Below, in pieces: positions 3,923-55,455 of a DNA stretch of 64,000 bases. The translations under genes and the position numbers were made by a program. Position 1 is the first letter of the stretch. Every line of letters begins with the position of its first letter. The notes under the pieces are model-generated. The model saw nothing but the letters and a program-made list of their open reading frames with translations. It had not been told where the DNA came from and searched no databases. This stretch comes from a virus (taxonomy: Duplodnaviria > Caudoviricetes): the IMG/VR virus record IMGVR_UViG_3300014208_000027, positions 96,001-160,000 of that record, one strand, 5' to 3'.

Positions 3923-6900
3923 TTGTCTATTAAAGAACTTTTCAATAAAAATAAATTACTAGCTCAAACTTCTATGGATGCGCTTACCTCTTCAGTTGAG
4001 TCAGCAGGCTACGTAACAGAATTTTTAGTTGACCGTGATAGAATCATTCCACAAGTAGATTTTAGTGATCCTTCTCAATTTTGCAAATTTGGCTCAGCAA
4101 AGAAATATTACGTTGATTCTATTCAGAACATTTATCAAAATTTCCCATTTGACGGTTCTGGCAAGGAAAAGTTAGAGTTTTATAATTCTTCTAGTGGCGT
4201 AGATCTCCATGTCCTAAACCAATGGTATCCAAAATTTACAGGTTATGCAAAATTTTCACCTAATGGTTATGGTTCTGTTTTAACTCAAAGTGATGGGTTT
4301 TCTAATCCTGCAACAAAAGAATATATTTTAGTACATGGTGGTCCTAATACAGGTTCGTTAGGTGGTTATCTTGGTGGTAACGTATACGACACTGGGTCCT
4401 TACGTGTTTCTAATTTACGATTTGGTGGTGACTATGGCAATACTGTAGAGTTCTGGTTAAAGAAAGGTGCTCCTGTTCTTGCTAGTTCTGCGAAGGAAGT
4501 TATTTTTGATGCCTGGAATAATGTGTCAGCTTCTCATGCAGCAGGAAGCACTTATGGTAGACTTTTAATTTATGTTGATGGCCAGGCTACCCTTGGAACA
4601 TCTTGTTTTAAAGTTTCATATGTTTCAGGTTCAGTTAGTGTTTGTACAGATTATTCTTTAGGTACAGTAGCCTTAACTGCAAGTTCAGTTTTAAATGATA
4701 CATGGAATCACTACGCTTTTTCTTTTAAGAATGCTGGTTCTGATCTTGCCGCGAAGGTTTATTTTAATGGTGCCTTGGATAGTTCTGTTATCATCTCGAA
4801 CGGCGCTATAAATGAGGTTCAAGGTGTCCTACACGGCTGCCTAGGCTCGATACTTACTTCTTCAGGTATGGATCATGTTCCACCTCAAGACCTAGGCTGG
4901 GGCAAGTTAAGTGGCTCTATTGATGAGTTTAGATTTTGGAAGAAAGAACGTACTCTTGGTGATATTGGTCGGTATTGGTTTACTCAAGTTAATGGTGGAG
5001 CAAACTCTAAAGATGGCAATACTAGTCTAGGTGTTTATTATAAGTTTAACGAAGGCATCAACTCTGTTACGGATAATAAAGTTTTAGATTATTCTGGTAG
5101 ACTTTCTCATGGCGCTTTTGTTGGGTACACTTCAGCTAATCGTTCATTAGATTCTGCAATTGATACTTATTTTTCTTCTTCCTCAGCAATTACTGAGGCA
5201 AAAGATCCGGTAGTTTATTCTTTCCACCCTGATGTAGTCTCCTTAGAATCTGAGAAGGCTCTTACAGGTAGTTTACATGATTTAGGTAACAGCACTAGTC
5301 TTTATTATTCTATGCCCTCTTGGATGATTGAAGAGGATGAAGAAAAAGAAAGATTTAATTTGTTAAATTTGACTCAAATTATGGGTCAGTATTTTGATAC
5401 GTTGTATATGCAAATTAGTGCTTCTGTTGGTATTCGAGACATCAATTATGATGGGTTGAGTGGTAGTAATAAGCCTTATCCGTTTGTTAATAAGATGTTA
5501 CAATCTAGAGGTTTTGATACTCCAGAGATTTTTTCTAATGTATCAACTTTAGAAAGTCTTGCTAATAGAAGTGATAAACTAGAATTTGAAGTGAAGTTAA
5601 ATGATACTAAAAATGTAATTTATCAGAACATTTATAATAATCTTTCTTACATCTATAAATCTAAAGGGACTCTTAATTCTATAAGAAACCTTATTAGATG
5701 TTTTGGTGTTGATGATGAGTTAGTACGATTTAATATCTACGCCAATAATACAACTCATCTTTTTAATGAGAACTTCAGAACTACCTCGGCAAAGAAAAAA
5801 TATGTTGATTTTAATAACGTAGACAGGTTTTACGGTACAGTTTATCAATATAGTTCTTCTAACAATGCTAATTCGTATTCTTATTTAACTTCTTCTGGTA
5901 CAAACCTTGAAGCTAGCGGATCAGCTTTAACAGCAGAAGCAAATATTATTTTTCCTAAGAAGTTTGAACAATCATCACCATTTTACTTTGAAACACCTTT
6001 CGTATCTTCTTCTCTATTTGGCGTTCACACTGTAAAGAAAAGTGCCGCTTCTTTATATGATACGTCGTGGGATAGTTCTGATACTTCTAACTTCCAAGTC
6101 TATGCGGTAAAAGAAGAAATAGACTCTAAGAATGTTTATTTTGTTCTTACAAGCTCTACAGGTGGACCATTACCTAGAATTTCTTCTGGTTTGATTACAA
6201 ATGTTTATGACAACAATCAATGGACTTTAGCTGTTAAAGTTCATCCTGAAAAATATCCCATTTTTGACGCAGTAAGTGGTTCTGGCGGAAACAACTTTAC
6301 TGTAGAGTTTTGCGGATACAATACAATTCTTGACACTGTAGTTAATTCTTTCTCCGTATCAAGTTCTTTAACTTACGCTCAAGGTGTGGCTTTCCTTGAC
6401 AATTCTAAGCGCTTTTACGTAGGAGCACATAAAAATAACTTTACAGGATCTAACCTTCAAGGAACAGATGTTAGAGTAGGAAATTTTAGAGTATGGTTAG
6501 ATAATCTCAGTAATGAGGAAATCCTTCATCACGCTTATGATAATTTAAATTATGGCGTAGATAGCCCTTATAGAAATATATCTCTACTAAAAAATTCTTA
6601 TGTTGGTAAAGAAATTCCTAAATTTGAAACTTTAGCACTTAACTGGAATTTTGAATTAGTAACCGGGTCTAATGCTTCAGGCCAATTCCAAGTTGTAGAC
6701 ATTTCTTCTGGTTCTAGTGATAATTTAAATCGTTATGGGTGGCTTAGTAATGTTACAGAAAAACAATTAGAAGGTCGTGGTGATGGATTCCTATCTAACG
6801 ACTCAAAAGTAACAAATGTAGAGTATATTTCTCGCGCTAAGTCAAGTTTGCCTGAAACTATTGGCGACGATGATATGATTCAAATTCTCGAAAGGGATGA

Positions 6901-9900
6901 TGAAACTTTCACAAGAGATACAAGACCTACACAATTCTTTTATACCGTAGAAAAGAGCATGTATCAAACCATTTCGGAAGAGATGGTAAAAATGTTTGCT
7001 TCTATTCTAGATTTTAACAATCTTGTTGGTCAACCTGTAAATCGATACCGAGCAGAATATAAAGATCTTGCCAAGTTACGACAATTATTCTTTGAGAGAG
7101 TATCAAATACGCCTGAAGTAGAAAAATATATTGATTACTTCAAATGGATTGATTCTTCTCTTATGAGAATGATTAAGCAGTTAGTACCTGCTTCAGCAGT
7201 TATGTATGATAATGTAGGCGACGTAATTGAAAGTCATATACTGGAACGAAATAAATATCAAACTAAGTTTCCAATTGTGGAATTTAAGCATGTTGATCCT
7301 ATCGAGGGAATGAAAGGAATAAATGAGTTAAAATATGATTGGAAAATTGGTCATGCACCTTTAAACGGGCTACAAAACAATAATTCTCTATACTGGAAGA
7401 AACGAGCCGTTAGAACTGATCCTGTACTATCATCATCTGTAGCTAGTGTAAATGATACTAGAGTAGGAATTTTTAACAACCTTCTTTCAACTTACGAGCG
7501 TCTAAAGACTACACCGTATGTTTTCTCCGGGGAACAAGAAAAAATAGTTGCTGGTGGTGCTAATCAAAGTAATCAAAAATCACCTACGCTACTAAAGAAT
7601 CTTGTTAATACTAAGGGAACATATGCAAGGGTAATTACAAGTTCTTTTGTTGATAATAATGATTATTCTGACCTAGGGCAAAAGAAAAAATACTCTTCTC
7701 AAATAATAAACAGTGCTACTGGAGATACATCTAAAGGAAACATTCTACCTTTCAGTATCTTTAGTTCGTCAGTAACGAGTGGTTATAATACTACTTCAAA
7801 TAACCTAAGCGTTGAAAATTTACACAATGATAGCTATCTTGATGGTGGTGAAGTTCCAATGCAAGGCCCATTTACTGAGCAACATGTAGGTGGACATCAA
7901 TATAGACATAATACTTTAAATACTGCTGGGACTGCTTCACAAGTTGACAGAGTAGAAGGATTTAAACTTTATCCTAATGCTAGTGGATATATGGATATCT
8001 ATAGTGGGGACACTTCTGGAAGTAATTTATATTCTAACCAACTACAAAAAGGTAATTATTTAAGAGATAGTGGAATTAAGAGTCCTGTCAATGTAAGAAA
8101 TATCAAAGGAGCTAACTTTGATAAAAACTACCAAGTAGTACAAACTTCTGGTAGGAAAACAAACAATAAAGCTTTTGTGGTAAGTGGTGGATTTGCTAAT
8201 CTAGTGAGTGCTTCTGCTACTGTAGCTGGAGTAATGGATTATCAATTACCCGATAGAGGTAGAAACGAAAGCGTATTCGTAGAAAGATTTAGTTGCCCTG
8301 GTGGACCCGAAACGGCTGGTGGCCCTAATGGTGGTTTTGGTTTAGATGTGAACTCTGCTGAATACTCTGTTTATAATTCATACAATTATAGAAATTTAAG
8401 AGTTAGAGACGCATTACAAACTTTATTAACAAGACATGCTGGACAGTTTGGAACAGATAGTTTATACGGAAATGTCAATTCAACTTATGAATCATCTGCA
8501 TCCTATCAAAAAACCAATAGAAATACGAGTTATGTCTTTACCTCTCAAAGTAATGGTACATATTTAACTGCTTCAAAATATGATAACTTTTTCATTAGTC
8601 ATGCTATACCCGCTAATGATAGACAGTATAGCTGGATCACTAGTTCTGCAATAACTGTGCCTTTTGGATATGCACTTAATAGTGATGATATAATTTTCAT
8701 TTCTTCAAGTGTAAGTTCATCCGCTACTGGAATAAGTGGAGTAGGAAATTTTGTAGGAGTAATGTCAAGTAGTTTAACTGCAAGTGATGGTTTAGACCTT
8801 AACTTAGTTTTAAATAATCGGGGTGCGGCTGGTAGAGGTTGGCCTTCTTGGAAGCAAATACGTTCGGGGGATACCCAACAAGCAAGAAATAATAGAGCAA
8901 AGAATATAATTGAAGTGCTTGATCCAAGTGCACCTATTACAACGGTTAAAAATGGACAAATGAACACCGTTCAAGCACTTCGATCATATAAAATAAGTTC
9001 ATACTTGGAAGCACCAATAAGTTCAAAATTTGCACCGTTAACTTATAATTTGAAAGTGAATAATGATGGATTAGTAGCACCACTAAGTTTGAAAGTAGCG
9101 TTTGGCAATCAAGTGCATAGTTTTGGCAATATTGAATTGGCTAATAAGTTGGGGATACAAGCAACTACACCTGCCTTATATAGTAGAATGTTGATGAGTT
9201 ATGCTGATGAAAATATTGGAGGTGATAATCAAGTTGATAGTTTCGAAAGTTTAAAATATAGCGAAACTGTATATCCAAGTGATATGTTTTCGTACACTGG
9301 CGATATTAGAAGTAGAAAAAATTATTCTGTAGATTATTGGACACATGCAAGAGAACATAGAAATACGGTAGCAACAAATTCACAAGGATATGTGGTATCC
9401 CAAAGTGTGTGGGGATTAGATGCAAGAAGTAATTTTACTTCTAGTATGCCGCAAACTGGGAGCGTTGGAAGCGAAGGAGAGTTACAGAATCTTTATTCAA
9501 TTTATTTTGCAACTAGCTCAATTGATCCTTGGTTAGCTGGAAATTATGTGAAATCGGTTACAAAATTTGGATATGCTTATGAAGTTGATGGTGTGCCAAC
9601 CGTTAATGCGGCAAACATCACAGATTATAATGACAGATTAGATGCTGGTCCTGCAGGCTACTGGAATTCTTATGTGGGTTATGATGGGACTAACCATTTG
9701 AGCATCTCAACTTGGGTTAATCCTATTCAATTTGTTGGGGCAAGTTTCCCAAATAGGCAACAAATAATAAGTTGGGGCACTGGTTCTATGGGACTGACCT
9801 TAGCAACTGGCTCAAGTGCAACAGATACACAAGTCTTATTCTATACTAGATGGGGCGTAGGAGCGGCTGCACCTGAAGTATATTGGGTCACTCATGGCAC

Positions 9901-12900
9901 ATCACTTTCATACAATAATTGGCATAATATTGTTGCTGTTTTCGATAAGGCGTTAATGTTAACAACTCCAGCCGTGGCAACAAAAATATATATTGATGGA
10001 GCATTGGCTTCAACTTATGGAGCACCAGCCGCCGCATATACTACACAACAAAAAATAGAAGGGGCAAATGCGTACATAGGAAATGATTGGTTATCCAGTG
10101 GTTCACACAGTTCCCCCTTAGAATCATATGTGTCTCACACTGCTATTTTTAGTGGATCACTTACAGCTACTCAAGTTAGTGAAATTTATAATAGCGGCAA
10201 ACCTTCTAGTCTATATCAGCATTCAGCAAGGAACAGTTTAATTAGCTATTGGCTTATGGGAGATGGAGTAGGAACTTTAAGTGGTAGTGGAGTATGTGGA
10301 GTTGTGCCACAATTAAATACTTTTGGTAGCGCCTCATTGATTAGTGATAGTTTAAGTAATACTGGGATTTATTTTGATATGGCTGGTTTGTCGTATCTGC
10401 GAAATACTAGCGATAGAATGAAAAATGAAGATACTTATTATAACAACGGCTCGGCAATAGATCACACTAAAGTTACACCTGGTAAACTAATTTTGAATTC
10501 TTCTTTAACTTCTCCGCTAAAAGGAATTGCTCAAGTTCGTGAGCCTAACTGGAGTGCAAACTTTAAACTTGGTTCTCTTTACGCAAGACCTGAGTATGTT
10601 TATGAGAATGTTACGCCATGGCAAAGAATAAAACTTTCTTCGAGTATTGGTTCTAACCCTTACTTTAGGGAAATTCATATAACTTCAAGTAAAACTTTAG
10701 CAGGATCGGCTGAATTTACTGCCAACCAGGGCAACAATGACCCAATGTTTAATTCATACTCTGAATATGCAAATGATTTGAGAAAGTATCAAGACTATTC
10801 TATTGTTCCAAGTTACAATTCATCGGATAGAATGGATTTCTATCTTAACAGTAAAAATTTTCTTGAGCCGGATGATGAGTTTTTGCAGCTCAAAGGTGGG
10901 ACATATTCTAGCAGTATTGAAAGTGGAATGTTTAAAACATACTCTATGGCAGAATTTTTGCAATACTTTGAAATATTGAAAAACGATCATGCACAATCAG
11001 GTGATGTTAAAACTCTGTCTTTAAAGTGTAAGGCTGCAATAAAATTATTACCTCATGATGGATTTTACCCAAACCAAAGAGTGGTACAATTAGCAGGTTT
11101 GTATTCTTCTAGTTATGGTGATTACGTAAGACCTTACAATCAAGGCGATGCATCATCAATGACGGCTTCTTTCCGTTCCTTCTTAACACCAGTGTGTATG
11201 CCTGGAATTCTAATGAATAGTTTGAAAGCATCTATTGCAACCGATCATCCTATTTGGACAGCACCTCCTAATACTTTTCAAGACTATAAATCAGGTAGAG
11301 GGAATTATTCGCCTACTGCTGATGGATGGCAAGACACGACACTTGCGCTTCTTGCTCCTTCTACATCAATTAGGAACAGGGAAATATTTGGAAGTGCTTA
11401 TAATGCGCAGACAGCTTCTTTCGTATCTTTTACCACGGGAATAGGTGGGTGCCATGTTGAACCAGCTTCTCTAAATTCATCTTCTTTTACAGTTATTGAC
11501 CCACTTGGGAATGATGACGGTATTGAATGGCAAAGTGTTTTGTTTGGGAATGTCAGCGAGAGGATTCCATTTGAAGCATTGGTAGCGCCTGAAAATTATT
11601 TAGCTAAACGTCCACTATATGACATAGAGTGTGATGCTTCTGCTAGTTTAAGGACGGATTTAACAGATCCTTCTACTAACATGGCATCATTTTGGGGAGG
11701 AGAGGGTAAACTAAATTATCGTTTAGCAATGTCGAACTTTTTGGCTTCAGTTCCAGATTTCTTTTTGAGCGAGGGAAAGCTTACTTCTTTTGTTAGTGAT
11801 CCGATTCCCTCTACTGGAGTTGTCATAACAGAAGAAGGAGCAAATTGTTATTATGGAATGGACGTTTCTCTAGCAGGTAGTCAAATTAGAAGTTTGAGTG
11901 ATTGGAATGCGAGAGTCCAACTTCCCGAATTTTCTGTGATAAGTAACTTATTCAATACCGGATTGACTGATGATGACTTAAATAACATTAAGGGTGTTCA
12001 CACGCAAACTTATACTCGTGCGAGTGCTTTTGGTCCACCTCAAGTCGCAGCACTTCCTGTTTTTACTGGCTCTGGAGATGTGTATAGATACCATTATGAT
12101 TATAGTACATTTACACCTAGTCACTTTGATGCGTTTTCTGTAGCCAGGTTATTGTTTTTCCCATATAAAGGCGCTGGAACGTATACGCTTTCTGAAATTC
12201 AAAGTCATACTACGGCAAGTTATATCAGAATGCCAGGAAGTAGAGTTGGAGTTGGAGCTTTATATAAAGTAAATCAATTACTTGAATTACAGACACTTAT
12301 TGCAAATGATAAAAATGTTCTTACTCCGGTATCTTCATCAGGGGCCCCCAGAATTTATGATTTAGCCTCACAGATTCTTACAGCTTCAGGAAATTGGTCT
12401 CAATTATCTTCTAGTATAGATTTATTTGGAGTTTCTAAGGTCAAGAATGCAAGTTTTGATAGAGGAACATCGCAAGAGTATAAAATTTCCTCTGTTTCAA
12501 ACGATAGTCCAAATCCTGACTACCAATGGGTGATTTCTAGTAAGTTTGAATCTCCAGTCTTAAACTTTAAGGATGCTAGTGTTAATCTTCCAACTTATGG
12601 AAGTTCAAGCATTTCTCGTGGTTTATGGCATCAAGCAGGGAGAGAATGTGTAGGAAATGAAGGATTGTGGATGAGTGTTTCTGATTTGCCAAGTTCTCCA
12701 TTAACAACTATTGGATGTGATGAATCTTCTGGAACTTGTTTATGGAATGGTAAAAGTGAAAATGTGATCAATATTGGAAATAAAAACGCTGAAGTAATTC
12801 TCTATGTCAATGACTATACGAAACTAACCGATTATTATTTGTATATTGATGGGACGTGGATGCCCTGCGCTAATGCTCTTGTACCCTCGCTTACACTTTA

Positions 12901-14002
12901 CTATGGTTACGTCGGATGGGAAAACGAAGTAAGCAATTATAAAACTTGTGTCAATATTGCAGCGTGTATAAATGATGTAAACGCTTATGGAATTGGGGGA
13001 ATATACAATAAAAGTTATAATGTTGTAGGTTCTACTGATAAGTTGATTGGTTTAGATAAACGATGCCACGCAGAAGCATTTCTTCCCGATATCCCTTCTG
13101 ACCCATTAAATCCTGTTGCGGCTGTTAGAATTAAAATAATTGATGTTGCAACACCGGACACAAATTACCCTGAATATTACAAATCTGGTAATTTAGGTAA
13201 TTCTTTAACAGTTTCTTGTACTCCTGATAGTAGCGCTTGGGGATTTGAAGGAAAGAGTTTAACTTCGGATAACATTATTGTTGCTTCTGAAGTTAGATTT
13301 CATGGTGGTGTAACTGGGGAATATAAGGTAAAAAGTTTTGCAGATCTTGTGAAGATCAAAAAAGAAAGTAAGCGTATTGGGCAAGTGGCTGAAGAAAAAA
13401 AGATTTATGAGGCAGTGGTGGCAATTCCTTATATTGAAAATAAAGGATATAGAGAGTTTTTCACGATTCCTAGACGACAAGTTGATATTGCATTAGGGAA
13501 AGTGGATGCTGCACCTGGAGAAAGCGTAGGTAAGAGTATAATGGATATGGTTACGAATATGCAAAAGTTCGTTTTCCCACCGCGCTTGGACTTCGTAAAA
13601 AATAGTTCTTTGGACGCATTTTCTATGTATATTTTTCCATTTAGCAAGACTCTGAATAAACAAGACTTGTTGAATATTTTTCAAGGTTTGATGCCAGCCG
13701 CGTCTCTTCAAATGGAGCATCAAGAATTGACGATGGCTCATGATTTAAGTGTAGGAGAATTGTTTAATGGTGATTTCCAAAATTGTCGATGGTTGATTTT
13801 TAAGGTAAAGCAAAAGGCAGCGTGGGATTATTATCAGACAACTCCAACGTCAATAGACGATAACAGATTTGTTTTTGATTTCCGGACTGGGAGAAAGTCT
13901 GCTCCTTCGGTTAGTTATAATTGGCCGTTTAGTGAGTGTGATTTGGTAGAGTTAGTTAAACTTGATGCGGGGATAACTATTGAAGGTAAGAAAAAGATTT
14001 AG
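3923..14002 (+). CDS. Giant virion (baseplate/tail-type) protein with LamG/ConA-like domains, 3359 aa
   Basis: LamG motifs: TVEFWLK, WNHYAFS, GSIDEFRFW...YYKFNE, and a second unit ISTWVN...WHNIVAVFD...KIYIDG...LTATQVSEIYN...YWLMGDG. TTG start after GAGG. Confidence 0.75.
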   Translation: MSIKELFNKNKLLAQTSMDALTSSVESAGYVTEFLVDRDRIIPQVDFSDPSQFCKFGSAKKYYVDSIQNIYQNFPFDGSGKEKLEFYNSSSGVDLHVLNQWYPKFTGYAKFSPNGYGSVLTQSDGFSNPATKEYILVHGGPNTGSLGGYLGGNVYDTGSLRVSNLRFGGDYGNTVEFWLKKGAPVLASSAKEVIFDAWNNVSASHAAGSTYGRLLIYVDGQATLGTSCFKVSYVSGSVSVCTDYSLGTVALTASSVLNDTWNHYAFSFKNAGSDLAAKVYFNGALDSSVIISNGAINEVQGVLHGCLGSILTSSGMDHVPPQDLGWGKLSGSIDEFRFWKKERTLGDIGRYWFTQVNGGANSKDGNTSLGVYYKFNEGINSVTDNKVLDYSGRLSHGAFVGYTSANRSLDSAIDTYFSSSSAITEAKDPVVYSFHPDVVSLESEKALTGSLHDLGNSTSLYYSMPSWMIEEDEEKERFNLLNLTQIMGQYFDTLYMQISASVGIRDINYDGLSGSNKPYPFVNKMLQSRGFDTPEIFSNVSTLESLANRSDKLEFEVKLNDTKNVIYQNIYNNLSYIYKSKGTLNSIRNLIRCFGVDDELVRFNIYANNTTHLFNENFRTTSAKKKYVDFNNVDRFYGTVYQYSSSNNANSYSYLTSSGTNLEASGSALTAEANIIFPKKFEQSSPFYFETPFVSSSLFGVHTVKKSAASLYDTSWDSSDTSNFQVYAVKEEIDSKNVYFVLTSSTGGPLPRISSGLITNVYDNNQWTLAVKVHPEKYPIFDAVSGSGGNNFTVEFCGYNTILDTVVNSFSVSSSLTYAQGVAFLDNSKRFYVGAHKNNFTGSNLQGTDVRVGNFRVWLDNLSNEEILHHAYDNLNYGVDSPYRNISLLKNSYVGKEIPKFETLALNWNFELVTGSNASGQFQVVDISSGSSDNLNRYGWLSNVTEKQLEGRGDGFLSNDSKVTNVEYISRAKSSLPETIGDDDMIQILERDDETFTRDTRPTQFFYTVEKSMYQTISEEMVKMFASILDFNNLVGQPVNRYRAEYKDLAKLRQLFFERVSNTPEVEKYIDYFKWIDSSLMRMIKQLVPASAVMYDNVGDVIESHILERNKYQTKFPIVEFKHVDPIEGMKGINELKYDWKIGHAPLNGLQNNNSLYWKKRAVRTDPVLSSSVASVNDTRVGIFNNLLSTYERLKTTPYVFSGEQEKIVAGGANQSNQKSPTLLKNLVNTKGTYARVITSSFVDNNDYSDLGQKKKYSSQIINSATGDTSKGNILPFSIFSSSVTSGYNTTSNNLSVENLHNDSYLDGGEVPMQGPFTEQHVGGHQYRHNTLNTAGTASQVDRVEGFKLYPNASGYMDIYSGDTSGSNLYSNQLQKGNYLRDSGIKSPVNVRNIKGANFDKNYQVVQTSGRKTNNKAFVVSGGFANLVSASATVAGVMDYQLPDRGRNESVFVERFSCPGGPETAGGPNGGFGLDVNSAEYSVYNSYNYRNLRVRDALQTLLTRHAGQFGTDSLYGNVNSTYESSASYQKTNRNTSYVFTSQSNGTYLTASKYDNFFISHAIPANDRQYSWITSSAITVPFGYALNSDDIIFISSSVSSSATGISGVGNFVGVMSSSLTASDGLDLNLVLNNRGAAGRGWPSWKQIRSGDTQQARNNRAKNIIEVLDPSAPITTVKNGQMNTVQALRSYKISSYLEAPISSKFAPLTYNLKVNNDGLVAPLSLKVAFGNQVHSFGNIELANKLGIQATTPALYSRMLMSYADENIGGDNQVDSFESLKYSETVYPSDMFSYTGDIRSRKNYSVDYWTHAREHRNTVATNSQGYVVSQSVWGLDARSNFTSSMPQTGSVGSEGELQNLYSIYFATSSIDPWLAGNYVKSVTKFGYAYEVDGVPTVNAANITDYNDRLDAGPAGYWNSYVGYDGTNHLSISTWVNPIQFVGASFPNRQQIISWGTGSMGLTLATGSSATDTQVLFYTRWGVGAAAPEVYWVTHGTSLSYNNWHNIVAVFDKALMLTTPAVATKIYIDGALASTYGAPAAAYTTQQKIEGANAYIGNDWLSSGSHSSPLESYVSHTAIFSGSLTATQVSEIYNSGKPSSLYQHSARNSLISYWLMGDGVGTLSGSGVCGVVPQLNTFGSASLISDSLSNTGIYFDMAGLSYLRNTSDRMKNEDTYYNNGSAIDHTKVTPGKLILNSSLTSPLKGIAQVREPNWSANFKLGSLYARPEYVYENVTPWQRIKLSSSIGSNPYFREIHITSSKTLAGSAEFTANQGNNDPMFNSYSEYANDLRKYQDYSIVPSYNSSDRMDFYLNSKNFLEPDDEFLQLKGGTYSSSIESGMFKTYSMAEFLQYFEILKNDHAQSGDVKTLSLKCKAAIKLLPHDGFYPNQRVVQLAGLYSSSYGDYVRPYNQGDASSMTASFRSFLTPVCMPGILMNSLKASIATDHPIWTAPPNTFQDYKSGRGNYSPTADGWQDTTLALLAPSTSIRNREIFGSAYNAQTASFVSFTTGIGGCHVEPASLNSSSFTVIDPLGNDDGIEWQSVLFGNVSERIPFEALVAPENYLAKRPLYDIECDASASLRTDLTDPSTNMASFWGGEGKLNYRLAMSNFLASVPDFFLSEGKLTSFVSDPIPSTGVVITEEGANCYYGMDVSLAGSQIRSLSDWNARVQLPEFSVISNLFNTGLTDDDLNNIKGVHTQTYTRASAFGPPQVAALPVFTGSGDVYRYHYDYSTFTPSHFDAFSVARLLFFPYKGAGTYTLSEIQSHTTASYIRMPGSRVGVGALYKVNQLLELQTLIANDKNVLTPVSSSGAPRIYDLASQILTASGNWSQLSSSIDLFGVSKVKNASFDRGTSQEYKISSVSNDSPNPDYQWVISSKFESPVLNFKDASVNLPTYGSSSISRGLWHQAGRECVGNEGLWMSVSDLPSSPLTTIGCDESSGTCLWNGKSENVINIGNKNAEVILYVNDYTKLTDYYLYIDGTWMPCANALVPSLTLYYGYVGWENEVSNYKTCVNIAACINDVNAYGIGGIYNKSYNVVGSTDKLIGLDKRCHAEAFLPDIPSDPLNPVAAVRIKIIDVATPDTNYPEYYKSGNLGNSLTVSCTPDSSAWGFEGKSLTSDNIIVASEVRFHGGVTGEYKVKSFADLVKIKKESKRIGQVAEEKKIYEAVVAIPYIENKGYREFFTIPRRQVDIALGKVDAAPGESVGKSIMDMVTNMQKFVFPPRLDFVKNSSLDAFSMYIFPFSKTLNKQDLLNIFQGLMPAASLQMEHQELTMAHDLSVGELFNGDFQNCRWLIFKVKQKAAWDYYQTTPTSIDDNRFVFDFRTGRKSAPSVSYNWPFSECDLVELVKLDAGITIEGKKKI

Positions 14003-22545: not shown

Positions 22546-25290
22546 ATGGCTACTTGTGAAAATAAAAAAGTTGACGGTAAATTAGAAGTAGCTAATCAAA
22601 AAAGTGACTACCTTGATAAATTAAAGTTTCAAGGTACTGCAAATTTAAATGAGGCTGTTCAGATTATACAGAATCAAACTGTAGCCGATCTTAAAGGTAA
22701 TCTTCTCCCTCAACAATATAATTCTTCTATCTCTGATAAAGCCTTTGCGCTTGGCAAAAGAATGATGGTATTAGATAAAAGTATCTATGGTCCATCTCTA
22801 CAAACTATTAAGAATCAAAAAGTGCTTTCGTCTGATACTCTGGACAATTTTAGGTTGAATAGCCTAAAGTATTGGACAATTGATGAGACTAGACAAAATA
22901 TAACTTATCTTAAAGAACCTGCTAAGCACCAAATAACCAGTTACAATTATTTTCATCGGTTAACTAAAGATAACAAGCCTAAAGATCCAAATGCAACTCA
23001 ACAATGGATAATAATCTCCCCTGATAGGGCAAAGTTTTTTGATGCTGTTGTTCCGAAGTCAGTTGCTTCTAAACTTCCCGCTGGCATTGCTGCCTATCAA
23101 AAGGCTAATTCTGGTGTGGTTGTAGTAGACGATAACGCATCTGCTATTTCTGCCAATTCTGTTAATGTGCCTCAAGGCATGGCAGTAGCATATAATCCTC
23201 AACTATGGAAATTATATGTTAATGGTGGAGTAAGTTCTGATGGATTTGTTTATCCTTCTCTATTAAAAACAAATGTAGAATATTTTGATCATGCCTTTGA
23301 GTTGAACGTACCATTTTTTCACGAAGAAATAAATGAATCCGCTCTTTTCGTCAAACCTTTGATATATGATGTTAATTTTGATTATAACTTTTTTGTGAAG
23401 GAATATGAAAAAAACATTGTTACTGTATCTGAACGTGACCTACCAAATTTTTATATTTTAGAATCCGAAATGGAACTAGAAGGCTCTAATCCTGAATATG
23501 CAAAAATGATTACTCTAGGCGGTGTAATGAATATTAAAGACGTTACATTATCTCAACCTAAAGAAGGTACAAACGCTAGGGGTAATAGTAAAAATTTCTT
23601 TGCTAGTTATGGTTTAAATGTCAAAACGGCTAGACAAGCCCAACAAGAGAAAAATGCTGTTCATGAGGGTTTGCAATATGTGAACGATAAACATTTTAAT
23701 CTGATTGTTCCTTTTGATAACATTCAAATTTTAAACAAATTTTATGGTCAAAAGAACATGTTCCCAATGTCTGTAGATTTAAGCTTTTCTACTGATAGAA
23801 CAACTTCTATATCAACTATCTTAAATGACTGTCGGTTAGATAAGACGTTTATAAAAGATGTAATTTTTGGTACGCATGAAAAATTTCAAGATTTCGTAGA
23901 AGATCTAGAGACTACCGTACAAACTAAAAATGATCAAGGTGGTTCAACATTAAATAAAGGTTCTAATGCAAGTTTTAATTCAAGAAGAACGTGGAACATT
24001 ACTGATTGGCTAATTGATGTTAGTAAGCGATTAGATGTTCCTGTCCTAACTAACGGAACAATTTTATTTAACCAAACTTCTACCGCTCAAGATAATGTTA
24101 CTGGAATCATGCGCAACCTGCTTCAAATGATTTTCACTGGCAAACTAAAAAAACTTATTAAAGACAAGTCTAGAACCTATGAAGATGTATTAAATGGTAA
24201 GTTAGCATATTCAGAAACTATGATGTATAGGATAGAAAAAAGATTAGCTGATGAACAAGGTAATCCAGTCGGAGACCCTATTCAAAATTACTACGTGGCT
24301 AATTCAAATCTAATAGATACGCTTAAGTTAATTGATATTCAGGTAAAATATAATACACGATACAGATATGATGTATTTGCTTTCCAATTAGTCATAGGCA
24401 ACAAATATAAATATAATAACATAGGTCTAGATGATAACAATGCTGTAATAGAAGTTGAATCTTCACCATCTGTACTTGTTGTAGAAGTACCCTACTTTAG
24501 TCATGCTAACATAATTTTAGACGATCCACCTGTTAGACCCGATGTGGACATTGTATCTTATAAAGATATTGATAATGAATTACTTTTACGCTTTAATGGT
24601 AACGTAGGTCAATACTATGAAATGCCTATTATTATTGATGTTGAAGACAGAAGAAAGGTAGAAGAGTATAGGCAAATAAAAAAGATTGCCTCTGATAAGC
24701 CATTTAGGTTTAGTTCTGACGATCATGCAAGTATATTTCAAATTTATAGAACCGAAGAAGAACCAAAAGATTACTCTAGTTTTGCCGGTAAATTAAGAAT
24801 AGCCGTACAAACTGACGTATCTCCTTTAACGGCTCAATCGGCTACTTCTGCGGCATATAAAGATAAAATAAAGCCTAATAGAAAGTATTGGTATACGTTT
24901 AGATCGGTAGATAATCATGGGCACTTATCGCAACCAAGTAATGTATTTCAAGTAGAAATGGTTAATAATCATGGCACAGTTTATCCAATTATAGAAGACT
25001 ACGAATTTAAGAAGGTACAAAATAAAAAAGTTAGCAAACCAATGAGAAGATATGTTTATATTGCTCCTACCATGATACAAAGTTTGATAGATGAAGAAAA
25101 AAGTAATATGATTGGCATAGAAAGTGCAAAAGATATAGACGTAAGCAAGGTTACATTAGGACTAGAAGATCAAGGTGTGTGGAATAAAAGATATAAGATT
25201 AGAATAACAAGTAAAAAGACTGGTAAAAAAATAGATATTAATGTCATGCCAACATATAAAGGCGTAAGGAAAGAAAAAAAAGAAGATTAA
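22546..25290 (+). CDS. Large hypothetical protein, probably virion (914 aa; Ig/FN3-like C-terminal half)
   Basis: C-terminal beta modules (DxxVKYNxxYxY; YxDKIKPNRKYWYTFR). Confidence 0.55.
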   Translation: MATCENKKVDGKLEVANQKSDYLDKLKFQGTANLNEAVQIIQNQTVADLKGNLLPQQYNSSISDKAFALGKRMMVLDKSIYGPSLQTIKNQKVLSSDTLDNFRLNSLKYWTIDETRQNITYLKEPAKHQITSYNYFHRLTKDNKPKDPNATQQWIIISPDRAKFFDAVVPKSVASKLPAGIAAYQKANSGVVVVDDNASAISANSVNVPQGMAVAYNPQLWKLYVNGGVSSDGFVYPSLLKTNVEYFDHAFELNVPFFHEEINESALFVKPLIYDVNFDYNFFVKEYEKNIVTVSERDLPNFYILESEMELEGSNPEYAKMITLGGVMNIKDVTLSQPKEGTNARGNSKNFFASYGLNVKTARQAQQEKNAVHEGLQYVNDKHFNLIVPFDNIQILNKFYGQKNMFPMSVDLSFSTDRTTSISTILNDCRLDKTFIKDVIFGTHEKFQDFVEDLETTVQTKNDQGGSTLNKGSNASFNSRRTWNITDWLIDVSKRLDVPVLTNGTILFNQTSTAQDNVTGIMRNLLQMIFTGKLKKLIKDKSRTYEDVLNGKLAYSETMMYRIEKRLADEQGNPVGDPIQNYYVANSNLIDTLKLIDIQVKYNTRYRYDVFAFQLVIGNKYKYNNIGLDDNNAVIEVESSPSVLVVEVPYFSHANIILDDPPVRPDVDIVSYKDIDNELLLRFNGNVGQYYEMPIIIDVEDRRKVEEYRQIKKIASDKPFRFSSDDHASIFQIYRTEEEPKDYSSFAGKLRIAVQTDVSPLTAQSATSAAYKDKIKPNRKYWYTFRSVDNHGHLSQPSNVFQVEMVNNHGTVYPIIEDYEFKKVQNKKVSKPMRRYVYIAPTMIQSLIDEEKSNMIGIESAKDIDVSKVTLGLEDQGVWNKRYKIRITSKKTGKKIDINVMPTYKGVRKEKKED

Positions 25291-25454
25291 ATATGATTTA
25301 AAGATAGAGGGTGGATGAAGGCGATTTCCTGATTTGTAAAGCTAAATATTAGGATTAGTGGGCCACGACTAGGTAGAACAATTCCAATTTCATTGTAAAA
25401 ATAATGTGAAGGATTAACATTTTTAACTAAATCACCAACTTCAAATTTAGTCAT
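25287..25454 (-). CDS. Small SH3/KOW-like protein (55 aa)
   Basis: Manual translation MTKFEVGDLVKNVNPSHYFYNEIGIVL... Confidence 0.6.
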   Translation of the reverse strand: MTKFEVGDLVKNVNPSHYFYNEIGIVLPSRGPLILIFSFTNQEIAFIHPLSLNHI

Positions 25455-25489
25455 AACATTTTCCAAGGCATAAAAAAAATAACAAATAG

Positions 25490-25561
25490 TCCGCCATCAA
25501 GGTTATGCTCCTTGTACTATCGCTTATAAGGCGATTGCTTTACTGATTAAGCTAATGGCGA
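25490..25561 (-). tRNA. Non-canonical tRNA(-like) gene, anticodon UAU (Ile, AUA)
   Basis: 72-nt cloverleaf: acceptor TCGCCAT/ATGGCGG, D stem GCTT/AAGC, anticodon stem ATCGC/GCGAT with loop CTTATAA, T stem CAAGG/CCTTG, discriminator A. T loop AGCATAA; D loop lacks GG. Confidence 0.75.
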
Positions 25562-25575
25562 ATATTAAATTTTAG

Positions 25576-25648
25576 TAGCTCCTATCGGATTCGAACCGAT
25601 ACTTGACAGATTTTGAGTCTGTTGCCTCGACCGTTGGGCTAAGGAGCC
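25576..25648 (-). tRNA. trnL: tRNA-Leu(CAA) with a short variable region, CCA not encoded
   Basis: GGCTCCT...AGGAGCT-A; anticodon arm ACAGA-CTCAAAA-TCTGT; T arm ATCGG-TTCGAAT-CCGAT. Confidence 0.9.
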
Positions 25649-25660
25649 ATTCATAGAATA

Positions 25661-25688
25661 ACATTAGCATGGTTTGAACAGTTGTCAA
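25661..25688 (-). promoter_or_regulatory. Sigma70-type promoter for the tRNA pair
   Basis: TTGACA-16-(TGc)TAATGT, 12 nt upstream of tRNA-Leu. Confidence 0.65.
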
Positions 25689-25775
25689 GTGATAAGAATT
25701 TTCACAGGCATAAAAAAATAATCTCTTGCCTAATTATCATGTAACTGATACTATACAATAGGAGTATTAAAATAC

Positions 25776-26687
25776 ATGGCATTTTTAGATAACTCAGGTG
25801 ACGTGATTTTGGATACAGTTATAACCGACCTTGGAAGAATGAGACTTGCTCAAGGTAATTTCAAAATTACTAAGTTTAGCCTGGGGGATGAAGAAATAAA
25901 TTATGCGCTATACAATAGTTCCCATAGTTCAGGAAGCGCGTACTACGATCTGCAAATAATGCAAACACCTATACTTGAGGCGTTTACAAATAATGCCTCC
26001 ACTATGAATTCTCATTTAATCACAATACCTAGAAACAATTTACTACACTTGCCTGTGATGAAGATTAATACTATAGTAGCTCCTTTAAACACAAATGGGG
26101 CTTATTATCTTGCTGTAGATAGTGCGACACAAGCAGCTTTTGCAGCAAGTAATGTCACACAAGGTATAATCAATGGTGAAACTCTAGGCGGCGGAAATAA
26201 ATTTATTAGAGTTGATCAAGGAATTGACTCATCTGAAGTAAGTTTTGCAATACCACTAGAGAATGACCTTGTGGAAGTAAGTTATGTTGTGGAAATCGAC
26301 AATAGGATGGGAAAATTAGTTTCGGTTGAGGGTGCTCCAGCAAAAGTTAGTTATATCGATGATGATCAGATTGCTTCATATTATTTTTCCAGTGGCACTG
26401 ACGCTAACTATGTTAAAGATGTTGGTAATCAAACTAACAATACAAATCAAGTAATAGCTGGACCAAGAGGAACATATTTACAATTTAGTATTCAATCAAG
26501 TCTAGATTTGAACACTTCAAATTTTCTATTTCAACAATTGGGAACCACTGGAGTAGCTGGGAATAATGCACAATTTGGCATTGCTGCAACGTATCTAGTT
26601 GATTTTATTGACAGCTATATCAAGATCACCGGAGCTACAACGGGAAATACTTTATTCGTACCTTGGCGTGCAGTTAAGGTGCAATAA
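25776..26687 (+). CDS. Virion/baseplate protein (N-terminus resembles tail-collar fibre DUF3751)
   Basis: ITDLGRMRLAQGNFKITKFSLGD resembles LTxxGxxKLA...ITxMAxGD; SD AGGAG. Confidence 0.6.
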   Translation: MAFLDNSGDVILDTVITDLGRMRLAQGNFKITKFSLGDEEINYALYNSSHSSGSAYYDLQIMQTPILEAFTNNASTMNSHLITIPRNNLLHLPVMKINTIVAPLNTNGAYYLAVDSATQAAFAASNVTQGIINGETLGGGNKFIRVDQGIDSSEVSFAIPLENDLVEVSYVVEIDNRMGKLVSVEGAPAKVSYIDDDQIASYYFSSGTDANYVKDVGNQTNNTNQVIAGPRGTYLQFSIQSSLDLNTSNFLFQQLGTTGVAGNNAQFGIAATYLVDFIDSYIKITGATTGNTLFVPWRAVKVQ

Positions 26688-27805
26688 TGAATGAATTAAA
26701 TACATCTGGTATTTATAAAATTGTGAATAGGGTGAATGGAAAAATATATGTTGGGAGTGCTGTATGTATTAAAAAGAGATGGAGGCAGCATAAAACATTG
26801 CTTAAACAAGGAATCCATCATAATTTATTTTTACAACGCTCTTGGAATAGAGATAAGGAGGAATCTTTTGTATTTTCTGTTTTAGAGAAAACGAAAAGAG
26901 AATTTCTTCTGGAAAGAGAACAATATTGGATGGATGCTTTCCAAAGTTATAACCAAGTTTTTGGTTATAATATAGCCAAAGTAGCTGGAAGTAGTTTGGG
27001 TATTAAAAGAAGTGAGGATTACAAAAAAAGATCCTCTGCTGCGAGAAGTGGTGAATTAAGTGCGATGAGTAAGATGACATGGGACAGTGTTTTTGAAATA
27101 AGAAAGCTTTATAAAGATGGATTAAACTTATCAGAAATAGGTAGAATGTTCAATGTTACATCTGGCTGTATTAGACCAATTATAAAAAACAAATCTTGGA
27201 AAGATGAAAATTATACTTATATCAAAATAGAGCCAAAACATAAAAAGACAAATAGCAAATTCCTAATTGATGATGTTAAAAAGATGAGAAGTGAATATGA
27301 AAGTGGAGAAAAATCTCTTTTAGAACTTTCAGAAATATACAATACTAATTTTACAACAATACATTCAATAGTTTCTTATAGAAATTGGAATTTTGAAGGA
27401 AAAGAGATATATAAGAAGCCAAGAAACAAAAAAAAATATCGTAAAGGCGCTGATAATACGTCTTCATTTTTGACCGAACAACAAGTTTGTGAGATGAGAA
27501 AAAAGTATGAAAACGAAGATGTAACAATAGTAGAAATAGCCAAACAATATGAGATAAATCCAAGTACCGCTCAGGGGATTTTGTCATATAAGACATGGAA
27601 TGCTGAGGGAAAAAACCGTTTTTATAAACCTCGGCAAAAAAGTTGTGATTCTCCTTCTGCAAAGTTGATTAAAGAACAGATAAAAGAGATAAAAAACTTT
27701 CTATGTACGAGAGAAAAGAGTAGAAAAGAAATTTCGGAAATATACAATATTGATTTATCAACAATTTCAAGAATAGCAACTAATAAAATACATAAGGATA
27801 TATAA
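26687..27805 (+). CDS. GIY-YIG homing endonuclease with four tandem C-terminal HTH-like repeats
   Basis: SGIYKIVN..KIYVGSA..KRWRQH...ERE..YN; four ~45-aa repeats of the type LTxxQVxEIRxxY...xxEIAxxYxIxxSTIxxIxxxKxW. Confidence 0.88.
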   Translation: MNELNTSGIYKIVNRVNGKIYVGSAVCIKKRWRQHKTLLKQGIHHNLFLQRSWNRDKEESFVFSVLEKTKREFLLEREQYWMDAFQSYNQVFGYNIAKVAGSSLGIKRSEDYKKRSSAARSGELSAMSKMTWDSVFEIRKLYKDGLNLSEIGRMFNVTSGCIRPIIKNKSWKDENYTYIKIEPKHKKTNSKFLIDDVKKMRSEYESGEKSLLELSEIYNTNFTTIHSIVSYRNWNFEGKEIYKKPRNKKKYRKGADNTSSFLTEQQVCEMRKKYENEDVTIVEIAKQYEINPSTAQGILSYKTWNAEGKNRFYKPRQKSCDSPSAKLIKEQIKEIKNFLCTREKSRKEISEIYNIDLSTISRIATNKIHKDI

Positions 27806-53139: not shown

Positions 53140-55455
53140 ATGCCTCCAAAGAATCATAATACTAGAAATCCGTTAGAACAATCTCATGATCTTTTTAAAC
53201 GCTTAACACGTCTTTTTAGTGGTCCACTAGTCTCATACAAAGCACAAGTTGAGAAGTCTCTTAGGCGTAAACAATTAGATAAGTATTCTCGTCAGCTAAA
53301 GACAACAGATGGTCAACATTTTAAGAAGCAACAATTTAATTTATATGATGCCTTGAGATCTGCTGCGTTTATGAATGTCCAAAGGCATCAACGTTATAAT
53401 GATTTTAATGAGATGGATACGGATGCTTATATCAGTTCTTGCCTAGACATATATTCTGATGAAATGTGTACGTACTCTAAGCTTCAACCAATGTTGACGA
53501 TTAACTGTGCAAATGAAGAAATTAAAGAAGTTTTAAAAGTTCTCTATAAAGATGTGCTAAATGTGGAATGTAATTTGCCTGGTTGGTGCAGGTCAATGTG
53601 TAAGTTTGGTGATTTTTTTATGTTTCTTGACATTGACGATTCTCTTGGAATTCAGCGTGGAATTGCATTACCACCTGGAGAAGTAGAGCGACTTGAAGGA
53701 GAAGATAAGTTAAACCCTGATTATGTTCAATTTCAGTTAAATACCGGAGGATTAACTCTTGAAAATTGGCAAGTTGCACATTTTAGAATCTTAGGTGTAG
53801 ACAAATATGCCCCATTTGGAGTAAGTGTGTTAGATGGTGGGAGAAGAACCTACAGACAGCTTTGTTATGCTAAGGGAACAAAAGTTTGGCTTCCAAATCT
53901 TGAAGAAAAAAATATTGAAGATATGAAAATTGGGGATGTTGTATTTTCTTTTGATCGTAGTATAAACCAAATAATTGAAACAAAAGTAAAAAATGTTGCA
54001 TTTATGGGGATACAAAAGGTAATTGAAATAAAAAGCGGGGAGATTACTTTAAAAGTTACTCCAAATCATGGAGTTTATGTTAGAAATAAAGATGATCAAA
54101 TTATTTGTAAAATGGCAAAAGACTTAATTTGCTTTGAAGATAAGTTGATTTGTCCTACTGAACTAAATGATTGCGATTGCGGTGATTGGAGTTATTATAG
54201 TTTCCAACTTGTAGAAGAAGTTGTTGACAATGGAGAATTTGTTGAAACTTATGATCTTGAAGTTGATCATGAATGTCACAACTTCACTGCTGATGGAGTA
54301 ATTGCTTCTAACACACTATTAGAAGATTCTATTATAGCTTATCGTATTGTTCGCGCACCTGAAAGAAAAGTTTTTTATCTTGACGTAGGTAATATCCCGC
54401 CACAAGATGTTGAAGTATTTATGCAGAAAGCTATGACGCAAATGAAACGTCACCAAATTGCTGATCCCACTACAGGTAGAGTAGACCTTCGCTATCAACC
54501 TATGAGTGTTGAGAATGATTATTTTCTTCCTGTGCGCGGTCAAGGTTCTGCTACTAGAATTGAGCCCCTACCAGGTGGTCAATTTGTTGGCGATATTGAT
54601 GATTTGAAATATATTAAAGATAAATTGTTTGCTGCCTTAAAGGTTCCTATTTCTTATATTTCTCGTGGCGAAGGCTCTAGTGAAGATCAAGGTTCTTTAA
54701 GTGTCAAAGATATCCGCTTTGCTCGCACTATTCAACGCCTACAGAAGTCAGTTATTGCAGAGTTAACTAAAATTGGTCTTGTGCATCTTTTTATTCTAGG
54801 TTACCGTAACGAAGATCTGCTATCATTTTCGCTAGCGTTGAATAATCCTTCGAAGATTGCAGAACTTCAAGAACTTGAACATTGGAAAACTAAATTTGAG
54901 GTTGCTGGCGCTGCTACGGAAAACTTCTTTTCTAGGCGTTGGATCGGTGAAAGAATTTTTAATCTTTCTGAAGAAGAGATGCTTCGTAATCAGCGTGAAA
55001 TGTATCAAGATCGATGGCTAGATTCACAATTAAATTCTATTTCTGAAGGTACTGAGTCTAGCTCTGGAGGTGGCGGTGGACTTGAGGGCTTATCTAGCCC
55101 CGATAACACACCTGACGCTGGTTTAGAGGGCACTGATGAAACTGGAGAGCCATCAGAACCACCTACTCTTCTAGCCGCTCCTGGTAAGCGTGACGAGCCT
55201 CATTTAACGCCTGGTTCAAAAGGTAAAGTTTATTTTCCTGAAGAGTTTGATAAGCGTGGTATGGGGGCTAGATCTGTTCATATGGATTCTTTAGGTGGCA
55301 CTATTTTACCAGGGCTTAAAAAAATGAAATCTCTTGGTAGAGGTATTGCTAATGAATCTTTAACATTGGAAGAAAGTAAACTTCATAACACTAGTTTTGA
55401 AATTAAACAATTATTAGAAAAGTTAGAAAGTAAAACAGACAAGAAGATTATTTAA
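53140..55455 (+). CDS. Portal protein (T4 gp20-like) containing a mini-intein
   Basis: CLDIYSDE, WCRSMCKFGDFF, QL/TLLEDSIIAYRIVRAPERKVFYLDVGNIPP, DYFLPVRG..TRIEPLPGG, ALKVP. Confidence 0.92.
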   Translation: MPPKNHNTRNPLEQSHDLFKRLTRLFSGPLVSYKAQVEKSLRRKQLDKYSRQLKTTDGQHFKKQQFNLYDALRSAAFMNVQRHQRYNDFNEMDTDAYISSCLDIYSDEMCTYSKLQPMLTINCANEEIKEVLKVLYKDVLNVECNLPGWCRSMCKFGDFFMFLDIDDSLGIQRGIALPPGEVERLEGEDKLNPDYVQFQLNTGGLTLENWQVAHFRILGVDKYAPFGVSVLDGGRRTYRQLCYAKGTKVWLPNLEEKNIEDMKIGDVVFSFDRSINQIIETKVKNVAFMGIQKVIEIKSGEITLKVTPNHGVYVRNKDDQIICKMAKDLICFEDKLICPTELNDCDCGDWSYYSFQLVEEVVDNGEFVETYDLEVDHECHNFTADGVIASNTLLEDSIIAYRIVRAPERKVFYLDVGNIPPQDVEVFMQKAMTQMKRHQIADPTTGRVDLRYQPMSVENDYFLPVRGQGSATRIEPLPGGQFVGDIDDLKYIKDKLFAALKVPISYISRGEGSSEDQGSLSVKDIRFARTIQRLQKSVIAELTKIGLVHLFILGYRNEDLLSFSLALNNPSKIAELQELEHWKTKFEVAGAATENFFSRRWIGERIFNLSEEEMLRNQREMYQDRWLDSQLNSISEGTESSSGGGGGLEGLSSPDNTPDAGLEGTDETGEPSEPPTLLAAPGKRDEPHLTPGSKGKVYFPEEFDKRGMGARSVHMDSLGGTILPGLKKMKSLGRGIANESLTLEESKLHNTSFEIKQLLEKLESKTDKKII
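53863..54312 (+). mobile_element. 150-aa mini-intein (no endonuclease), portal residues 242-391
   Basis: Block A CYAKGTKV..IEDMKIGDVV; block B TPNH; block F VETYDLEV..HNF; ends ASN, then +1 Thr. Removal restores RQL-TLLED. Confidence 0.9.

Follow-up and report, generated by a model that had tools for sequence, protein, structure and literature searches.

The tRNA cassette and its genomic context

Two tRNA genes lie side by side on the minus strand of the window, by which we mean the whole stretch of 64,000 nucleotides that was analysed, and they are the only tRNA genes in the entire phage genome. The upstream one is a tRNA-Leu(CAA) at 25576–25648, called by ARAGORN at 25575–25648 and matched by the Rfam tRNA model with 62.2 bits; its elbow is canonical. 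The downstream one is a tRNA-Ile(UAU) at 25490–25561, which measures 72 nt to the discriminator A73 and does not encode CCA. Its assignment draws on ARAGORN, Rfam, the predicted fold and an alignment of 20 homologues. The spacer between the genes (25562–25575, minus strand), read from the sequence, has the 14 nt that an earlier, sequence-only reading of this DNA had given for the gap.

Bacterial tRNA-Leu usually carries a long variable arm. The tRNA-Leu(CAA) of the cassette has only 73 nt and a 5-nt variable loop and is of class I shape. Short genes annotated as tRNA-Leu also occur in Rhodococcus phage Trina (74 nt, anticodon taa) and in Bacillus phage P59 (77 nt).

A putative sigma-70-type promoter, recognized by reading the sequence, occupies 25661–25688 on the minus strand and ends about 12 nt before the tRNA-Leu gene. 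It combines a perfect TTGACA (25683–25688) with a 16-nt spacer and TGn-TAATGT (25661–25669). A promoter and terminator scan of the minus strand of the locus listed neither element; the putative promoter stayed under the scan thresholds because its −10 hexamer matches at only three of six positions. The sequence-only reading had put both tRNAs under one promoter. A candidate upstream site with a perfect TTGACA does exist, but the promoter scan does not list it, and co-transcription of tRNA-Leu and tRNA-Ile from this site is plausible.

The tRNA pair is flanked by a 34-nt direct repeat, with its downstream copy at 25449–25482 and its upstream copy at 25688–25721; the two copies are 71% identical. 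The repeat core GGCATAAAAAAA occurs at only these two places in the window, where 0.09 occurrences are expected. The repeat may be a footprint of the insertion of the tRNA pair. It brackets exactly both tRNA genes, and its downstream copy extends into the start of a 53-codon putative ORF (25287–25448), which follows the tRNAs on the same minus strand and lies within the inserted segment. This ORF belongs to no PHROG family, and its product has no homologue but itself among 5.8 billion proteins.

A search with the neighbouring 303-aa protein led to ten contigs of related phages. All ten have homologues of the 914-aa, 303-aa and 358-aa proteins side by side, and none of the ten loci has a tRNA at the matching place; the block of the present phage has therefore received two insertions. 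The first is a minus-strand segment of ~485 bp that holds the two tRNA genes and the 53-codon orphan ORF, and the tRNA cassette is thus an insertion. The second is a GIY-YIG homing endonuclease gene (26687–27805, plus strand) between the 303-aa and 358-aa genes. Its 372-aa product has C-terminal HNH and HTH matches, and it lies 1 kb from the tRNA cassette. The cassette recurs, identical and without any difference, on contigs of a second, independent groundwater study.

The virus record that contains the window (203,498 bp, 34% G+C, rated complete) originates from a groundwater metagenome. It encodes a large terminase and a portal of T4 type; among cultured phages, Flavobacterium phage immuto and Microcystis phage Mel-JY01 come nearest, with a terminase identity of only ~39–40%. 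A search of the phage proteins found neither a TilS-type enzyme nor a CCA-adding enzyme. Since neither tRNA encodes CCA and the phage has neither of these enzymes, host enzymes must finish the tRNAs. Elsewhere in the window, the T4-type portal is encoded at 53140–55455 on the plus strand (Pfam Portal_T4, 222 bits). A weak intein-splicing match to its residues 241–391 scores 29.7 bits, below the cut-off of 35.8, and the gene may be intein-bearing. Positions 3923–14002 of the plus strand form one open reading frame of 3,359 codons.

Structure of the tRNA-Ile(UAU) gene

ARAGORN calls a tRNA-Ile(tat) at 25489–25561 on the minus strand, and Rfam RF00005 matches 25490–25561 on the same strand over model positions 1–71. 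With 50.7 bits (E 6e-8, calculated for the whole window), the match exceeds the curated gathering threshold of 29 bits, and it covers the full-length model. The sequence-only reading had recommended ARAGORN and Infernal scoring and had warned that standard scanners may miss the gene; both programs detect it.

In the Infernal alignment the acceptor stem is UCGCCAU/AUGGCGG with a U1–G72 pair, the D stem GCUU/AAGC and the T stem CAAGG/CCUUG, and no stem contains a mismatch. The anticodon loop CUUAUAA (25524–25530) is placed by both ARAGORN and Infernal and carries the anticodon UAU at 25526–25528; the variable loop AGUA has 4 nt, and the discriminator is A73. Energy minimization yields exactly this cloverleaf (−20.9 kcal/mol, z −3.4). 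Besides the four stems, the molecule has a 7-nt anticodon loop, U33, U8, A14 and the G53–C61 pair. The gene at 25490–25561 is a real phage tRNA-Ile(UAU).

The two loops that form the elbow depart from the usual sequences. The D loop AAUCAGUA (25541–25548, minus strand) contains A14 and, in the Infernal alignment, an AG dinucleotide that is read as A18–G19 and replaces GG. The T loop AGCAUAA (25503–25509, minus strand) aligns as A54 G55 C56 A57 U58 A59 A60 and is closed by G53–C61. Among the near-universal elbow bases, G19 and C56 are kept, while A takes the place of G18 and of U54, G that of U55 and U that of A58. The pairing of all stems, the U1–G72 pair and both loop sequences had been read in the same way from the sequence before. 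The earlier statement that the D loop lacks G18–G19 is right in that there is no GG, but one G is kept in the AG and aligns across the family as G19, the partner of C56. In the core, A15 opposes A48, and position 48 is C or A across the class of tRNAs with this elbow. As A15/A48 is not a standard 15–48 (Levitt) pair, the core may differ from the canonical one.

The elbow as two paired loop swaps

The corner of tRNA is built by the G19–C56 pair, the intercalation of base 18 and the contact between G18 and Psi55 (PMC4810234). We compared the loop positions of 666 unique tRNAs called by ARAGORN in the fetched phage loci. With the AGCAUAA loops left out, 72 of 79 tRNAs with G55 have a D loop that contains AG but not GG, 494 of 544 with U55 have a D loop with GG, and 33 of 43 with A54 have U58. 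U54 is accompanied by A58 in 577 of 580. The association of position 54 with position 58, and that of position 55 with the D loop, point to two swaps, each compensated and independent of the other: A18/G55 in place of G18/U55, and A54/U58 in place of U54/A58. The tRNA-Ile(UAU) of the window has both swaps, and it keeps G19–C56, a purine at position 57 and G53–C61. The D and T loops had been described as degenerate in the sequence-only reading; what was taken for degeneracy is a set of two covarying swaps. Judged by this covariation, the elbow is rewired into a matched alternative corner, and is not a degenerate or decayed one.

A parallel for such a corner exists in the class-II cobalamin riboswitch, where the pentamer AGCAU is a proven T-loop module and fully active as a variant (PMC6158498). 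In this riboswitch, the T-loop has a closing A–U pair, the turn is held by a near-invariant G at its second position, and its C forms a pair with a distal G, whose 5′ neighbour intercalates (PMC6158498). Given the retained contacts, the covariation and the AGCAU module of the riboswitch, the L-shape is expected to be kept. From the covariation and the riboswitch analogue, we infer that A18–G55, A54–U58 and G19–C56 contacts are formed in three dimensions.

TrmA and TruB modify U54 and U55. The tRNA-Ile(UAU) of the window has neither uridine and hence, by its sequence, lacks the target sites of TrmA and TruB.

Relatives with the UAU anticodon

The family was searched with a pattern in which the anticodon loop CUUAUAA is joined to the T arm GGAGCAUAACC. 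Its matches in viral contigs were four true tRNAs in phage tRNA clusters and chance ones in a coding region. Among prokaryotes, represented by one genome per species (185,579 genomes), it gave three matches, two of them distinct, all in phage-like tRNA clusters on Erysipelotrichaceae contigs. Metagenome contigs contributed 28 further loci, several of which are repeats. UAU tRNAs with the rewired elbow thereby amount to 20 distinct sequences, that of the window included, and the other listed members of the family score 46–56 bits under the Rfam tRNA model.

In the alignment of these 20 sequences, 97.1% of the cells are paired, a percentage inflated because candidates were chosen by their pairing in three of the stems; the D stem, which was not a basis for the choice, pairs in 92.5%. 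Both-sided changes occur in 19 of the 21 pairs, and the remaining two are fixed by the search pattern. Double-change cells number 172, as against 52 ± 6 in shuffled alignments, and none of 500 shuffles reached this value. When partners were slid as a control, pairing fell to ~40%. Covarying homologues, for which a search had been suggested from the sequence alone, are therefore present, and their stems do show compensatory changes.

The tRNA of the window gave only partial matches to unrelated tRNAs in a blastn search against cultured phages, and two other class members gave no match in the same database. A match in Xanthomonas phage X1 was rejected as a relative; it is a different odd tRNA, a tRNA-Ile(GAU).

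Some members of the family were found in particular surroundings. On two unrelated metagenome contigs (L073:1775–2203 and L108:339–771), a rewired tRNA-Ile(UAU) lies directly 3′ of a tmRNA, with gaps of 4 and 0 nt, respectively. On a third contig that carries one, there is a match to a Pistol ribozyme (L089:349–419; 61 bits, cut-off 34.5). At L085:3469–3674, two rewired tRNA-Ile(UAU) genes stand in tandem, 136 nt from start to start, and the two copies differ by one deleted G at the start of the T stem.

The first acceptor pair was also compared. G1–C72 is present in none of the 20 rewired UAU tRNAs, in 25 of 101 UAU tRNAs with a canonical elbow (loci L252–L371) and in 233 of 405 other tRNAs on the same contigs. 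Phage tRNA-Ile(UAU), with either elbow, tends to have a weak first acceptor pair.

Spread of the rewired elbow among phages and bacteria

We assigned the tRNA of the window to a wider class by its AGCAUAA loop on a G53–C61 pair, its D loop with AG instead of GG, and its 4-nt variable loop. All 69 tRNAs of the class that we collected have AG in the D loop, with the consensus AAU(N)AGNA, and 59 of them have the 4-nt variable loop. ARAGORN misses 43 of the 69, and gene finders consequently under-call the class.

A second scan was anchored on the T arm plus ACCA, without the anticodon. It retrieved 53 distinct cloverleaf tRNAs with many anticodons, only one of them UAU, and an elbow specific to tRNA-Ile(UAU) was rejected on this count. 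The anticodon types found with the rewired elbow are His, Ile-GAU, Thr, CAU, Lys, Val, Ala, Glu, Phe, Gly, Gln and Leu. In phage tRNAs the elbow serves at least 12 amino acids, and overall it occurs in 15 specificities. Phage tRNA clusters often contain members of the class, as a rule one or a few amid canonical tRNAs. The single A18/G55 swap, for its part, dominates some phage clusters, where it is found in 21 of 31 (L237) and 10 of 12 (L207) called tRNAs.

A restriction of the elbow to phages was likewise rejected, as the scan of prokaryote genomes gave at least 120 matches in bacterial genomes; 51 clean cloverleaf tRNAs were obtained from the 89 loci analysed. Among the matches listed, tRNA-His(GUG) with the rewired elbow occurs in 24 species of Patescibacteria, with C73 in all 24 and an encoded G-1 that was checked in one Paceibacterota genome (G006). 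Also among the matches listed, rewired tRNA-Val(GAC) occurs in eight Pelagibacterales genomes, and rewired tRNA-Asp and tRNA-Val mainly in Verrucomicrobiota. The SAR11 tRNA-Val(GAC) genes (L415, L417, L422, L426, L431, L438, L451 and L457) have the D loop AAUAGNA and the T loop AGCAUAA. SAR11 has cultured strains, which makes the rewired tRNA-Val(GAC) accessible for testing.

In the genome G006 (L489–L520), the sole tRNA-His among 46 tRNA matches has exactly this D and T loop, while almost all the others are canonical; the assembly is incomplete, with no CAU-anticodon tRNA among the 46 matches, and a second tRNA-His is conceivable. That the only detected tRNA-His carries the rewired loops indicates, as strong evidence if not as proof, that the design works in ordinary translation. 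The same genome has a tRNA-Glu(CUC) and a tRNA-Phe with the single A18/G55 swap, and a canonical tRNA-Ile(UAU).

AUA decoding and the likely function of the gene

The sequence-only reading had proposed a TilS-independent decoder of AUA, and at the level of sequence the features of the gene agree with it. The anticodon UAU is accompanied by U33, A37 and A38, the discriminator is A73, and the pairs C4–G69, U12–A23 and C29–G41 are present. A73, A38, A37, C4–G69, U12–A23 and C29–G41 make up the identity set of E. coli IleRS. Across the 20-member family, A73 is found in 20, C4–G69 in 15, U12–A23 in 10 and C29–G41 in nine sequences. The phage, which encodes no TilS, uses ATA at 19.7 per 1000 codons, that is, for 29% of its Ile codons.

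Because relatives without a tRNA at this locus use ATA similarly, with no clear contrast, a benefit in codon supply is not demonstrated, and we regard such a benefit from tRNA-Ile(UAU) as plausible. The related phage G003 has independently, elsewhere in its genome, a tRNA-Ile(UAU) with a canonical elbow and a tRNA-Leu(CAA) with a long arm.

There is precedent for this kind of decoding in cells. Mycoplasma mobile uses a tRNA-Ile(UAU) naturally (PMC3575796). In B. subtilis, a tRNA-Ile in which G34 was changed to U34 read AUA well and AUG weakly, and it sustained growth without TilS (PMC3919564).

Taken together, we consider the gene to be a working elongator tRNA, a TilS-independent AUA decoder with a rewired elbow that was brought by the inserted cassette, with a probability of roughly 0.75. 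On this reading, the gene would have arrived within the small inserted cassette and would be transcribed, probably together with the neighbouring tRNA-Leu(CAA). The transcript would then be processed by the RNase P, the 3′ trimming enzymes and the CCA-adding enzyme of the host, and would be charged by the host isoleucyl-tRNA synthetase. The Ile codon AUA would be read through a U34–A pair at the wobble position, a mode of reading for which neither lysidine nor TilS would be needed. The tRNA would thereby add AUA-reading capacity to a phage that uses ATA often. Its expression, its charging with isoleucine and its reading of AUA are predictions from the features listed above.

Why the elbow is rewired

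Two readings of the elbow itself were weighed. On the plain one, the design is equivalent to the canonical one and spreads together with tRNA genes. On the other, it is an adaptation: without U54 and U55, the tRNA would escape the enzymes that read or cut the T loop, such as T-loop tRNase toxins, TrmA and TruB, and an AUA decoder would be kept under tRNA attack or limiting modification. A toxin of the required kind exists: CdiA-CT(E479) cleaves tRNA between the T and the pseudouridine, both of them conserved (PMC9086364). Sequence changes are known to let phage tRNAs evade nucleases of the anticodon arm (PMC10264068; PMC11464382). The way in which the class is scattered through phage tRNA clusters, one or a few members among canonical ones, would also suit an adaptation. 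However, the tRNA-Leu of the same cassette is canonical, as are most tRNAs in phage clusters, and free-living bacteria have the elbow as a fixed trait of housekeeping tRNAs, for which phage defence is no obvious driver. Moreover, the anti-phage tRNases that were checked cut the anticodon arm, PARIS at positions 40/41 (PMC11464382) and bacterial Schlafen at 30/31, and both were rejected as readers of the T loop. Evasion of host nucleases by means of the elbow is possible only for enzymes that do read the T loop, and we find the adaptive explanation unlikely, if worth keeping in view.

A broader version of this idea would see in the elbow a second type of tRNA corner with a distinct function, one that folds without TrmA and TruB and goes unseen by readers of T54–Psi55. 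The phage tRNAs would be spares, and the isoacceptors of Patescibacteria and SAR11 would have become fixed for the same reason. If this were true, phages would deploy single rewired tRNAs, such as the AUA decoder, as nuclease-proof or modification-independent spares. We hold this proposal to be doubtful.

The sequence-only reading had also raised the possibility of a tRNA mimic or decoy, which would act outside translation by soaking up or misleading a nuclease, a T-box or a synthetase. The replacement of the universal G18, U54, U55 and A58, all four of them, and the weak U–G pair at 1–72 might be taken as marks of such a molecule. Nevertheless, the features required for translation are all kept (the cloverleaf, U33, A37, A73, G53–C61 and G19–C56), and the same elbow is found in a sole tRNA-His and in 15 specificities, many of them in phages. 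The weak 1–72 pair, in turn, is general in phage tRNA-Ile(UAU), including those with a canonical elbow. A role as mimic or decoy is hence very improbable. A decaying or non-functional pseudogene carried in by the cassette, for which the lack of a close relative among cultured phages and the existence of relatives without the cassette could be cited, is scarcely credible for a gene whose stems contain no mismatch, whose loops are identical to those of a family with compensated divergence in its stems, and whose cassette is identical in a second, independent groundwater study.

The tRNA-Ile(UAU) of the window is thus most likely an AUA decoder and, judged by its loops, one member of a widespread class with a rewired elbow. 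G18, U54 (T), U55 (pseudouridine) and A58 are taught as near-universal in tRNA and are the sites of its most conserved modifications. The class replaces these four bases in coordination while the tRNA, as far as the housekeeping members indicate, stays in service. Its members comprise phage tRNAs with many different specificities as well as housekeeping tRNAs from Patescibacteria, SAR11 and Verrucomicrobiota. It offers a natural test of the purpose of T54 and Psi55, and a testable idea of how a tRNA may escape enzymes directed at the T loop. For the phage itself, the practical meaning is modest and would consist in decoders of its own for AUA and UUG.

Comparison with known systems

In the literature, we found no paper that contains the loop sequence or describes an elbow with A18/G55 plus A54/U58. 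A specialist review of T-loop conservation makes no mention of G55, U58 or A18, and neither a paper on tRNA arrays nor a survey of virus tRNAs describes G55/A18 or A54/U58.

The closest counterparts by anticodon are other phage tRNAs. Canonical phage tRNA-Ile(UAU) matches the tRNA of the window in anticodon, in likely role and in its tendency to a weak 1–72 pair, but its T loop is UUCRANY and its D loop contains GG. It was found at no fewer than 120 loci in viral contigs, as compared to four for the rewired form when a pattern of this kind was used. UAU tRNAs are therefore ordinary in phages, and only a small share of phage AUA decoders has the rewired form.

The published cases of tRNA-Ile(UAU), tRNA-Ile2 of M. 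mobile (PMC3575796) and the G34U suppressor of tRNA-Ile1 in B. subtilis (PMC3919564), share with the tRNA of the window the UAU anticodon, lysidine-free reading of AUA, A73 and an Ile-type body. Their U34 carries no modification, and they read AUG only weakly (PMC3575796, PMC3919564). These cases are cellular, whereas the present tRNA is phage-borne, has the rewired elbow, and owes its charging and decoding to prediction. The tRNA-Ile2 of M. mobile carries pseudouridine (PMC3575796), which we take to mean a canonical elbow.

For the corner itself, the nearest known structure is the T-loop formed by J1/3 with J6/3 in the class-II cobalamin riboswitch env8Cbl-IIa (PMC6158498). It has the same five-base loop closed by an A–U pair, the G at the second position, the pair between C and a distal G, and the intercalating base. 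This T-loop is part of a riboswitch junction and not of a tRNA, the tRNA version being known as a sequence.

Among tRNAs, a changed 54–58 pair is known from eukaryotic initiator tRNA and AGC-tRNA-Ala, in which A54/A58 replaces U54/A58 (PMC7566577). Pairs of the A54/A58 type have been reported as not seen in bacterial or archaeal tRNAs (PMC7566577). The eukaryotic molecules keep A58, U55 and G18–G19 (PMC7566577), whereas the tRNA of the window keeps neither A58 nor U55 nor G18; the purine at position 60 and the unusual 15–48 pair are features that they have in common with it.
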